Positions 15,317-17,875 of a stretch of DNA of 32,000 bases are shown here, piece by piece. Under the pieces are notes generated by a model. It saw only the letters and a program-made list of their open reading frames with translations, was not told the DNA's origin and ran no database searches. Made by a program: the position numbers and the translations under genes. The DNA is from Candidatus Methanoperedens sp. (lineage in GTDB: Archaea > Halobacteriota > Methanosarcinia > Methanosarcinales > Methanoperedenaceae). The stretch lies in the NCBI GenBank assembly GCA_041494705.1, contig JBGQBI010000001.1, positions 30,001 to 62,000 on the forward strand, given 5' to 3'. The first letter of the stretch is position 1, and every line of letters starts with the position of its first letter.

Positions 15317-17875
15317 ATGAACGATGTCAATAATGAATACGGCGCAGAGCAGATACAGGTACTTGAGGGGCTCGAAGCAGTACGCAAGCGCCCAAGCATG
15401 TATATAGGAAGTACAGATGCACGCGGGCTTCACCATCTTGTGTATGAAGTCGTGGATAACAGCATAGATGAGGCGCTAGCAGGCTACTGCAACAATATCG
15501 AGGTGACCATCAGGTCAGACCACAGCGTCAGGGTAGTAGATAACGGCAGGGGAATCCCGGTTGAGGTCATGCCGAAATACCAGAAATCTGCGCTTGAAGT
15601 TGTTATGACAATGCTCCATGCCGGAGGGAAATTCGACAACAATGCCTACAAAGTCTCAGGAGGCTTGCACGGCGTAGGAGTTTCCGCAGTCAACGCCTTA
15701 TCTGAATGGCTTGAAGTGGAAGTCAGGCGCGATGGCAAGCTGTACAAGCAGAGGTACGAATGCGGGAAACCAGTTACGGCAGTGACTCTCATAGGCGAAT
15801 CAACGCAGGCGGCAGGCATAACGGTTACTTTCAAGCCTGACAAAACTATTTTCGAAACGCTTGAGTTCAACCTCGATATGCTGGCTGCCCGGCTGCGAGA
15901 GCTTGCTTTCCTCAATAAAGGCGTCAAAATATCGCTGAAGGATGAATTCACGCAAAAAGAAGAGGTGTTCCAGTACGAGGGGGGAATCGTTTCGTTTGTT
16001 GATTTCCTGAACAAGAACAAAAACCTCCTCCACGAGAAGCCGATATATTTCCAGAAGCAAAAAGACACGACTGTGGTCGAAATCGCCATGCAGTACAACG
16101 ACAGCTATACTGAAAATGTGTATGCTTTTGCCAACAACATCAACACGCACGAAGGCGGAACGCACCTTGTCGGATTCAAGGCAGCGCTCACAAAGGTATC
16201 CAACGATTACGCTAAAGCAAAGGGGCTGCTGAAAGGCGAGGAAAAATTATCGGGGGATGATGTCAGGGAAGGGCTGACCGCAATAATCAATGTAAAGCTC
16301 ACAAACCCGCAATTCGAGGGTCAGACCAAGACGAAACTGGGCAACAGCGATATCAAAGGAATAGTGGAGACGCTCGTCTCTGACGGGTTGTCTGAGTTCT
16401 TTGAAGAAAACCCGGCTGCCGGAAAAAGCATTCTTTCAAAGGCTCTTGAGGCTGCCGAGGCACGAGAAGCAGCAAGAAAAGCCCGGGAGCTCACGCGCCG
16501 GAAGAACGCGCTTGAAATAAGCTCGCTGCCCGGAAAATTGGCGGATTGTTCGGAGAAAGACCCGAAGCTTAGCGAGATTTACATCGTGGAAGGAGATTCA
16601 GCAGGAGGCTGTTTTTCAGGAGATACACTTATTGCCCTTGCGGATGGACGAACGCTAAGTTTCAAAGAAATCATGGCAGAGCAGGCTGCTGGTAAAGAGC
16701 ATTTTTGCTATACTATTCGAAATGATGGTAAAATCGGGTTAGAGCGAATAATAAATCCACGCAAGACGAAGGCAAATGCGAAAGTCATTAAGGTTACTTT
16801 CGATAACGGAGAAACTATCACATGTACGCCCGATCATCCGTTCATGATGCGTGACGGTAGTTTCAAACCTATAGAAGATGTTGCCATGAACGATTCATTA
16901 ATGCCTCTTTATCGCAAATTTTCAGACTTCAAGGAATCAGGTATTACAATAGATGGCTATGAAATGGTGCTCGACCCGCTTTCTGGTTGCTGGCTTTTTA
17001 CTCATGTGCTGGCTGACTGGTATAATGGCAATTTGAAAAACCACAGAGAGCACAGAGGACACAGAGAATGGCTGGACCCCTCTGTGCTCTCTGTGTCCTC
17101 TGTGGTTGATTATAATTATTTGGATTCATTTACTGGGAAAACTTTCAACCATCGTATTGTATCCATCGAACGGCTTGAAGAACGAATGGATGTTTATGAT
17201 ATCGAAGTTCCAAATACGCACAACTTTGCTCTTGCAAGCGGAGTATTTGTGCATAATAGCGCTAAGCAGGGACGCAACCGCAGGTTCCAGGCGATACTTC
17301 CTCTTCGCGGCAAGATATTGAACGTGGAGAAAGCGCGCCTGACTAAGATTTTGAAGAACGAAGAGATACGTGCGCTCATAACCGCCATCGGCGCAGGCAT
17401 CGGCGAGGGCGAAGAATTCGACATCGAAAAGACCCGGTACCATAAGATAGTGGTCATGACTGATGCCGATGTTGATGGAAGCCACATCAGGACTTTACTG
17501 CTGACGCTGTTCTACAGGTATATGCGCCCGCTTATCGAGAGCGGGTATATCTATATTGCCCAGCCTCCGCTTTTCAAGGTGAAGAAAGGGAAATCCGAAT
17601 TTTACGTGTATAATGAGGAAGAACTCAATAAGAAACTTGCCGAGATAGGAAGGGATGGTATCGCCATGCAGCGCTACAAGGGTCTTGGTGAGATGAACCC
17701 GCAGCAGCTCTGGGATACAACCATGAATCCCGAATCGCGCACCATGCTTAAGGTCACTCTTGAGGATGCCATCAAAGCAGATGAGATTTTTACCATACTT
17801 ATGGGCGATAAGGTGGAGCCGCGGCGCGAGTTCATCGAGAGGCATGCGAAGGATGTAAGGAATTTGGATGTTTAG
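15317..17875 (+). CDS. gyrB: DNA gyrase subunit B, interrupted by an in-frame intein
   Basis: GHKL ATPase motifs ([30 protein letters not shown]), Toprim EGDSAGG...[10 protein letters not shown]...DADVDGSHI, and C-terminal [11 protein letters not shown]. 852 aa minus the 216-aa intein leaves a 636-aa extein. Confidence 0.95.
16610..17257 (+). mobile_element. GyrB mini-intein (216 aa) at the GDSAGG/SAKQGR Toprim site
   Basis: Starts [13 protein letters not shown] (block A) directly after EGDSAGG. Block B is [10 protein letters not shown]. It ends [22 protein letters not shown], followed by +1 Ser (SAKQGRNR). Too short for a full LAGLIDADG/HNH endonuclease domain. Confidence 0.9.
17041..17105. 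repeat. 65-nt inverted repeat, each arm being 3 x 9-nt iterations (CACAGAGNN)3 / (NNCTCTGTG)3, in frame inside the intein
   Basis: Arms 17041-17065 and 17081-17105 pair at 21 Watson-Crick plus 2 G-T of 25 positions, with a 15-nt spacer. Translates as HREHRGHRE...SVLSVSSVV. Confidence 0.85.

Follow-up and report, generated by a model that had tools for sequence, protein, structure and literature searches.

How does a long palindrome come to lie in frame within a single-copy gene for DNA gyrase, and by what means is it tolerated there? The question is raised by a stretch of 32,000 nucleotides (nt) from Candidatus Methanoperedens sp. (GenBank assembly GCA_041494705.1, contig JBGQBI010000001.1, positions 30,001 to 62,000 of the forward strand), referred to here as the window and used for all simple coordinates, in which gyrB is interrupted by an intein that carries an inverted repeat of 9-nt units. 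The genome studied, denoted G000, comprises 2.06 Mb in 6 contigs and is 99.5% complete. The palindrome is very probably the core of a truncated copy of a miniature inverted-repeat transposable element (MITE) of about 146 nt, which lies in frame at the endonuclease position of the GyrB intein and is tolerated as splicing removes it.

The gyrB locus and its intein

The gene forms one open reading frame (ORF), in which the Pfam families HATPase_c, DNA_gyraseB, Toprim, DNA_gyraseB_C and Intein_splicing are recognized. A tblastn search of the extein against the genome returned the gyrB locus alone, and gyrB is thus single copy. The locus is divided as follows.

15317–17875, + strand: gyrB (DNA gyrase subunit B), interrupted by an intein
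16610–17257, + strand: mini-intein of 216 residues inserted between GDSAGG and SAKQGR, from Cys1 to His-Asn, followed by Ser+1, with a match to Intein_splicing
16610–17026, + strand: N-terminal splicing region, residues 1–139, ending in ...LADWYN and alignable to all orthologs
17027–17143, + strand: linker of 39 codons replacing the ~258-residue endonuclease domain of the orthologs, delimited by protein alignments and by the nucleotide alignment with the ortholog L054
17144–17257, + strand: C-terminal splicing region, identical in protein sequence to the endonuclease-bearing ortholog L054

The intein matches PF14890 (Intein_splicing) with 70.3 bits at a cut-off of 35.8. It begins with CFSGD and ends with VFVHN, which is followed by S; block B reads T73-P-D-H76 and the C-terminal pair is H215-N216. 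The residues C1, T73, H76, H215 and N216 are unchanged across 25 aligned inteins. Cys1, the TxxH motif, the C-terminal His-Asn, a nucleophile at position +1 and a match to the HINT profile are all present, as is characteristic of a class 1 mini-intein. The endonuclease domain is absent from the 216 residues, Intein_splicing being the sole Pfam family detected within the intein. Relatives of the gyrB intein with 46–77% identity, many of them with a long central domain, are found at the same insertion site in cyanobacteria, Chloroflexota and other groups, and the GyrB intein of Synechocystis sp. PCC 6803 presumably occupies the same insertion site in the Toprim region (between GDSAGG and SAKQGR).

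The palindrome

Between the two splicing regions the palindrome is composed of three segments.

17039–17066, + strand: left arm, AACCACAGAG-AG-CACAGAG-GA-CACAGAG, with three heptamers at 9-nt spacing
17067–17079, + strand: spacer or loop of 13 nt, AATGGCTGGACCC
17080–17107, + strand: right arm, CTCTGTG-CT-CTCTGTG-TC-CTCTGTGGTT

Read as 9-nt units in the region 17041–17105, the left arm consists of CACAGAGAG, CACAGAGGA and CACAGAGAA, which are followed by the 13-nt spacer and by the right units (C)TCTGTGCTC, TCTGTGTCC and TCTGTGGTT. A repeat search delimits arms of 28 nt each, 86% complementary and separated by 13 nt, which can be paired perfectly over 17 bp in two alternative registers shifted by one 9-nt unit. 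The predicted RNA fold of the segment has an energy of −44.3 kcal/mol, compared with −19.7 ± 3.2 kcal/mol for shuffled sequences (z = −7.8), and none of 200 shuffles was as stable. Four occurrences of the 16-mer CACAGAGNNCACAGAG are found in the window, with none expected. The palindrome lies in frame within the gyrB ORF, and its translation includes ...SVLSVSSVV. The first-pass annotation had described a 65-nt in-frame inverted repeat of 9-nt units at this position; the repeat is indeed real and not a product of chance, while the homologous unit is longer and extends from about 17031 to 17144, including non-palindromic flanks.

The MITE family in the genome

Allowing for at most one mismatch, the 16-mer CACAGAGNNCACAGAG has 137 matches in the 2.06-Mb genome, compared with a single match of the reversed control. 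The 137 matches group into 44 clusters, and an nhmmer profile built from eight full copies, with a family consensus of 146 nt, gives 47 loci. Alignment of the copies together with their flanks shows that the conserved unit exceeds the palindrome, the full-length form of about 146 nt having no ORF and the layout GAGACTTTTTATTATTTTCTGG-TTTGAAAAACC-[3 x CACAGAGNN]-loop-[3 x NNCTCTGTG]-GGTCGATTATCCTTACCTGGATTCATTTAC-CCAGAAGAAATTAAAAAGTCTC, in which the outer 22 nt constitute terminal inverted repeats. Seven copies, 144–147 nt in length, begin and end with GAGACTTTTTATTATTTTCTGG and its complement. Around six full-length copies there are exact target-site duplications of 8 bp (CAACTTCT, AAAAATAG, TAATTTAT, ATGAATCA, ATTCATTA and CAAATTCT), and at two further full-length copies the duplication matches at seven of eight positions. 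On account of the terminal inverted repeats and the 8-bp duplications, together with copy number, size and lack of coding capacity, the dispersed family is a MITE. The expectation of the first-pass annotation that further copies would be found across the genome is thereby borne out.

No match to the Y1/RAYT transposase (PF01797) is present in the 99.5%-complete genome, whereas the same search was positive in 6 of 14 control genomes. An assignment of the family to the repetitive extragenic palindromic (REP) elements mobilised by RAYT was consequently rejected.

The gyrB copy as a MITE remnant

The relationship of the gyrB segment to the family extends beyond the hairpin on its right side.

17031–17144, + strand: MITE-derived segment of 114 nt, corresponding to consensus positions 22–135 of 146 (nhmmer score 95.6, E = 2.7e-27; pairwise alignment agrees)
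17108–17133, + strand: non-palindromic right flank of the MITE, GATTATAATTATTTGGATTCATTTAC, identical to the consensus at 22 of 26 positions (4 mismatches)

All 13 matches of this right flank in the genome at up to four mismatches are family loci, while 20 shuffled controls gave no match. As the flank agrees with the MITE consensus, the segment descends from the MITE as such and does not merely resemble it in the hairpin.

Among the 47 loci the gyrB copy is the only one located deep within a long ORF, with 578 codons upstream and 242 downstream. Other open frames that span family loci are short and appear spurious, or touch gene ends. A near full-length MITE at the 3′ end of an ORF in another genome (L161, G004:C66:501-646) adds about 50 residues (NLKNHRERRVHRE...SVLSVYSVV) and is translated in the same reading frame as the gyrB copy; it merely lengthens the 3′ end of its ORF and was not retained as a further copy within a gene.

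Alleles of the intein in the genus

Seven Methanoperedens alleles (L054, L058, L059, L071, L132, L134 and L123) and several from other genera encode an intein of 435 residues. These inteins contain about 258 additional residues between ...LADWYN and FNHRI..., beginning with an HCHH...NNNPxN...H motif, for which the match to Pfam HNH_3 is weak and under the cut-off (E = 0.006). The 39 codons at 17027–17143 occupy exactly this endonuclease position. The closest of these alleles to the one studied here is L054 (isolate MFD12050), with an identity of 96% across the intein's first 300 nt and of 99% across its last 111 nt.

16677–17280, + strand: tract about 98–99% identical to L054 outside the swapped centre, with 7 mismatches in 16677–17026, 1 mismatch in 17141–17280 and dense mismatches outside the tract

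The exteins of G000 and L054 differ by 7–12%, and G053 resembles L054 in its similarity to G000. A second tract of low divergence between G000 and L054 is located at about 16084–16428. Such tracts suggest a recent exchange of gyrB or intein DNA between species.

Mini-inteins of 215, 203, 165, 159, 159, 153 and 152 residues, derived from independent deletions, are devoid of any MITE sequence and retain short endonuclease remnants. Over the genus and related metagenome contigs, intein lengths of 435, 228, 216, 215, 210, 203, 165, 163, 159, 159, 153 and 152 residues are observed, and from this spread many independent deletions of the endonuclease follow. When 49 genomes of the genus were surveyed with a probe of 100 residues across the extein junction (window 16609/17258), gyrB was found uninterrupted in 22, split by an intein at this site in 21 and without a match in 6. 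The possibility raised at first pass, that the palindrome is an ordinary coding segment conserved among GyrB inteins, is thus contradicted by the orthologs, which have either the ~258-residue HNH-like domain or an independent deletion at this position.

Other carriers of the MITE-bearing allele

The MITE-bearing allele is also present in four other Methanoperedens assemblies, and a further allele (L133) has a scar of it.

G002/L052: intein of 216 residues, both junctions as in G000
L131: intein of 210 residues, two right-arm units (18 nt) lost in frame
BLZ2/L051: intein of 228 residues, left junction as in G000, right side different
L053: intein of 228 residues, like BLZ2
L133: intein of 163 residues, element gone, an SQYPAQA scar of the BLZ2 type left

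In all five MITE alleles the left junction and the reading frame are the same (...AAT + 5 nt + TTTRAAAAACC). On the right side, alleles of the BLZ2 type apparently retain the right end that belongs to the MITE itself (...CAAAAATCT), after which come the final endonuclease codons (AQAYEAV, compare ALACEAV). The RNA folds amount to −44.3 kcal/mol in G000, −42.6 in G002, −24.3 in L131, −36.0 in BLZ2 and −42.4 in L053. Since the allele occurs in independent assemblies, it does not represent an assembly artefact. The in-frame losses in L131 and L133 argue that the reading frame alone may be under selection and the hairpin not.

Selection and predicted structure of the linker

Compared with G002, the ratio of non-synonymous to synonymous substitution rates (dN/dS) is 0.08 in the N-terminal and 0.05 in the C-terminal splicing region, and 0.86 in the element, the latter value resting on just 40 codons with 14 differences (10.5 non-synonymous and 3.5 synonymous). 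The changes in the shared element are thus mostly non-synonymous, in agreement with neutrality rather than coding conservation.

An AlphaFold2 model of the intein, calculated from an alignment of 25 sequences, has a predicted template modelling score (pTM) of 0.70. The N- and C-terminal regions are predicted to be rich in β-structure and form a confident HINT fold. The predicted local distance difference test (pLDDT) values are mostly 84–97 for residues 1–100, 51–73 for residues 101–140, below 50 for residues 141–179, which constitute the element, and 87–96 for residues 181–216. In this model the linker, which connects the halves of the HINT domain, forms a loop that is probably disordered. 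A search of solved structures by sequence returned only distant inteins (DnaE, RadA and DnaB), which are uninformative with respect to the linker.

From the single copy of gyrB and the purifying selection on the splicing regions (dN/dS 0.05–0.08) we infer that the intein splices. The earlier idea that the element is tolerated because splicing removes the linker agrees with the single-copy gene, the invariant splicing residues and the near-neutral element, and would hold to the extent that splicing takes place as these sequence data suggest.

Proposed origin and recombination history

As an in-frame MITE remnant, the copy would be transcribed and translated together with gyrB as a floppy loop of about 39 residues at the domain-insertion point of the HINT fold. 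This loop would leave with the intein upon self-splicing, and the element would drift almost neutrally as a passenger. Because the linker leaves the protein together with the spliced intein, the essential host gene would tolerate the MITE copy. As to its origin, the MITE would first have jumped into an ancestral 435-residue intein, within the 3′ part of its endonuclease-coding region. One deletion would then have taken out both the endonuclease and the leftmost 21 nt of the MITE, creating the left junction common to all carriers, and the right side would have been trimmed by lineage-specific deletions. Homologous recombination within the intein would later have carried the endonuclease-less, MITE-tagged centre from one Methanoperedens lineage to another.

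The similarities among the alleles bear on the last of these steps. The identity of the gyrB copy of G000 reaches 91% with its counterparts in gyrB of G002 and L131 but does not exceed 86% with any other copy of its own genome, and the three gyrB copies have derived bases in common in the loop and the right flank. In the identity matrices, the flanks give 0.86 for G000 and BLZ2 and 0.77 for G000 and G002, while the element gives 0.78 and 0.88, respectively. For the pair G000 and G002, synonymous divergence amounts to 0.14 within the element and to about 1.7 within the flanks. For each MITE allele the nearest relative by flanks is an endonuclease allele, namely L054 for G000, L134 for G002 and L131, and L132 for BLZ2 and L053. 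As the similarity rankings of element and flanks conflict, recombination has to be assumed inside the intein. It may either have introduced the MITE-tagged centre into resident inteins or have homogenised the flanks within species around a long-lived central polymorphism. A more far-reaching suggestion, plausible and still short of probable, is that the MITE-tagged endonuclease-less core spread between Methanoperedens species and replaced working endonuclease domains, the original deletion perhaps having been triggered by the long palindrome. If true, a degenerate allele would be spreading horizontally, and the MITE would act as a natural barcode by which the loss phase of the homing cycle is marked.

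Several observations weigh against descent from a MITE insertion as proposed here. The gyrB copy is devoid of both terminal inverted repeats, and no target-site duplication is present at the junctions 17027/17143. It is therefore a remnant and no clean or fresh insertion, and transposition into the intein site is for the same reason something that we infer rather than see. The same picture would also result if a MITE fragment had been captured as filler during break repair, which is a conceivable alternative. In the genome G000, no autonomous partner was recognized as a pair of terminal repeats 150–6000 nt apart, and the ends of the two DDE_Tnp_1 genes are unrelated to the MITE. Copies of the BLZ2 type are no closer to the G000 copy (78–80%) than are unrelated genomic copies, and it is the common left junction alone that points to a common origin of the two. 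The near-neutral dN/dS of the element suffers from the small number of codons mentioned above. Finally, the hairpin is still strong in four of five alleles (−36 to −44 kcal/mol), and weak selection on its structure could be acting. Microhomology at the junctions was considered and rejected, as CTGG on the left would give the wrong frame and the overlap on the right, TT-AA, is not long enough. Of the MITE- or REP-like insertion into a degraded endonuclease that had been put forward in the first-pass annotation, MITE homology and position are accordingly retained, whereas a clean insertion with target duplication is not.

Among the alternatives, independent MITE insertions at a preferred site in different lineages, instead of one ancestral event followed by recombination, fare best and are nonetheless improbable. 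They would account for an endonuclease-bearing allele being the closest flank relative of each MITE allele and for the BLZ2-type copies resembling the G000 copy only as unrelated copies do, and a genomic subfamily is known that also begins at TTGAAAAACC, the left boundary of the gyrB copy. However, left junction and frame are the same in all five alleles, and G000, G002 and L131 additionally have a common right junction and at least eight derived bases outside the consensus. Moreover, no terminal repeat or target duplication is found in any allele, although transposition would leave them.

No regulatory or protein-binding function of the hairpin is indicated. It is very unlikely that it has been kept for a role as nucleic acid, be it as a cruciform or RNA hairpin pausing transcription or translation, as a supercoiling sensor tuning gyrase, or as a set of 9-bp iterated protein-binding sites. 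Expression of gyrase genes is classically supercoiling-sensitive, the stem is of very high stability (−44.3 kcal/mol, z = −7.8) and still folds strongly in G002, BLZ2 and MFD12032 (−36 to −42.6 kcal/mol), and the element is 88–91% similar between G000 and G002 as opposed to 76–79% for the flanking intein. Recent exchange accounts better for this higher similarity of the element, given that the rankings of element and flanks disagree. Furthermore, L131 has lost two of three right-arm units, which reduces the fold to about −24 kcal/mol, and L133 has lost the whole element; 22 of 49 genomes of the genus are without the intein and about ten have the endonuclease instead. The differences between the arms of G000 and G002, one per side, are not compensatory in register.

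An ordinary endonuclease or linker remnant that is palindromic by accident, or an assembly artefact made by the repeats, can practically be dismissed: assembly contigs do break at family copies (four contig starts) and other mini-inteins of the genus do hold short endonuclease remnants, yet the segment does not resemble the endonuclease sequence of the 99%-related allele and matches the MITE model with E = 2.7e-27, the same in-frame architecture recurs in four other independent assemblies, and both junctions are in frame within a single-copy gene.

Variants of the family and the neighbouring genes

Of the 49 genomes of the genus, 48 contain the triple-heptamer hairpin motif (control 0). The triple CACAGAG motif at 9-nt spacing furthermore has 100–200 matches in some genomes of another family of the phylum (e.g. 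G192, G145 and G153), with 0–1 in controls, and forms a tandem array with one match per 36 nt at G072:C1:586337-586793. Since other families of the phylum carry the motif in many copies as well, the hairpin core may have a wider history than this MITE and possibly is a module of its own.

In G000, a subfamily has the same hairpin combined with a different right flank, GGTTAATTATCTGACCGGGATTGATAATCCAGAATAAA (C1:217869-217984, C2:243658-243790, C4:228890-229010, C5:92235-92351 and others). Nothing is conserved to the left of TTGAAAAACC in this subfamily, so that the hairpin apparently occurs together with more than one kind of flank. Two composite copies (G000:C4:75831-76048 and C4:283335-283547) harbor a second hairpin module between their arms (AAACCTTT..AAAGGTTT plus GGGGTATG..CATACCCC). 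The 96-nt intron of the tRNA-Tyr gene at G000:C4:75475-75645 consists largely of this second type of module and thus represents another repeat in a spliced-out segment; being a different hairpin module without the CACAGAG core, it was discarded as a carrier of the gyrB-type core. Four of the six contigs of G000 start inside family copies (C1:86-159, C3:111-157, C4:111-161 and C5:86-172), from which it follows that the assembly breaks at copies, including composite ones.

The gap between gyrB and gyrA (17903–18632) contains a small overlapping gene pair, predicted to encode a nucleotidyltransferase-like and a HEPN-like protein.

Comparison with known systems

Loss of the endonuclease, leaving a mini-intein, is the expected end of the homing cycle in its degeneration phase. 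Like natural mini-inteins, the gyrB intein has an intact HINT domain without endonuclease, and the same genus provides endonuclease-bearing alleles, independent deletions and empty sites. Unlike in other mini-inteins, the linker is foreign transposable-element DNA and not a leftover of the endonuclease, which allows one deletion allele to be traced. The DnaE inteins of Trichodesmium erythraeum, said to have been described by Liu and Yang in 2003, reportedly contain large tandem repeats at the endonuclease position; if so, repetitive DNA other than an endonuclease is tolerated centrally in both cases, there as a local tandem repeat and here as a fragment of a dispersed element. A paper on heptamer repeats (PMC4692102) was set aside as an analogue, since it deals with simple repeats forming G-quadruplexes and is not close.

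Palindromic MITEs lying in frame within genes have been described before, the Rickettsia palindromic elements (RPEs) being the foremost example, and are covered in a 2024 review of prokaryotic MITEs (PMC10969869), which lists 44 RPE insertions in genes of R. conorii and in which inteins are unmentioned. In common with RPEs and other intragenic MITEs such as ERIC and BOX (PMC10969869), the gyrB copy is derived from a palindromic non-coding element of about 100–150 nt that lies in frame and is translated as a tolerated peptide segment. RPEs, in contrast, are frequent and reside directly in the mature protein, whereas here only one of 47 loci is deep in a gene, and that copy lies in a segment which is removed after translation. 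In addition, the gyrB copy is cut at both ends and replaces a domain, and the likeness to RPEs described here is one of architecture. With one of 47 loci deep in a long ORF, an RPE-like habit of frequent in-frame insertion into genes was rejected for the family.

Terminal repeats, 8-bp duplications, a length of about 146 nt, lack of an ORF and tens of copies are features of prokaryotic MITEs, archaeal examples of which come from Sulfolobus and haloarchaea (PMC10969869). The family differs from MITEs in general in that no matching autonomous element was found in this genome and that the heptamer hairpin is abundant in other archaeal families of the phylum as well. The MITE segment is absent from the two non-Methanoperedens relatives examined (L083 and L089). 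In the literature searched, no report links MITEs with Methanoperedens, and no MITE inside an intein is described in the titles and abstracts covered. The case is a new combination of known kinds, a MITE and a mini-intein, and no new kind.

Implications

If no regulatory role exists, the locus is a tidy case of natural history and involves no new mechanism. It adds a third layer of genetic parasitism, with a fragment of a transposable element in an intein in a single-copy topoisomerase gene, where the fragment would survive by protein splicing, which hides it from selection on the host protein. The endonuclease position accepts about 39 unrelated and probably disordered residues, which is useful for intein engineering. 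As a foreign tag, the MITE exposes a mosaicism otherwise hard to show in inteins, the flanks following the species and the centre having another history. In the genus Methanoperedens, every stage of the homing cycle is represented at this single site, which may be empty or occupied by an endonuclease-bearing intein, by one of at least ten different deletion alleles or by the MITE-tagged allele.

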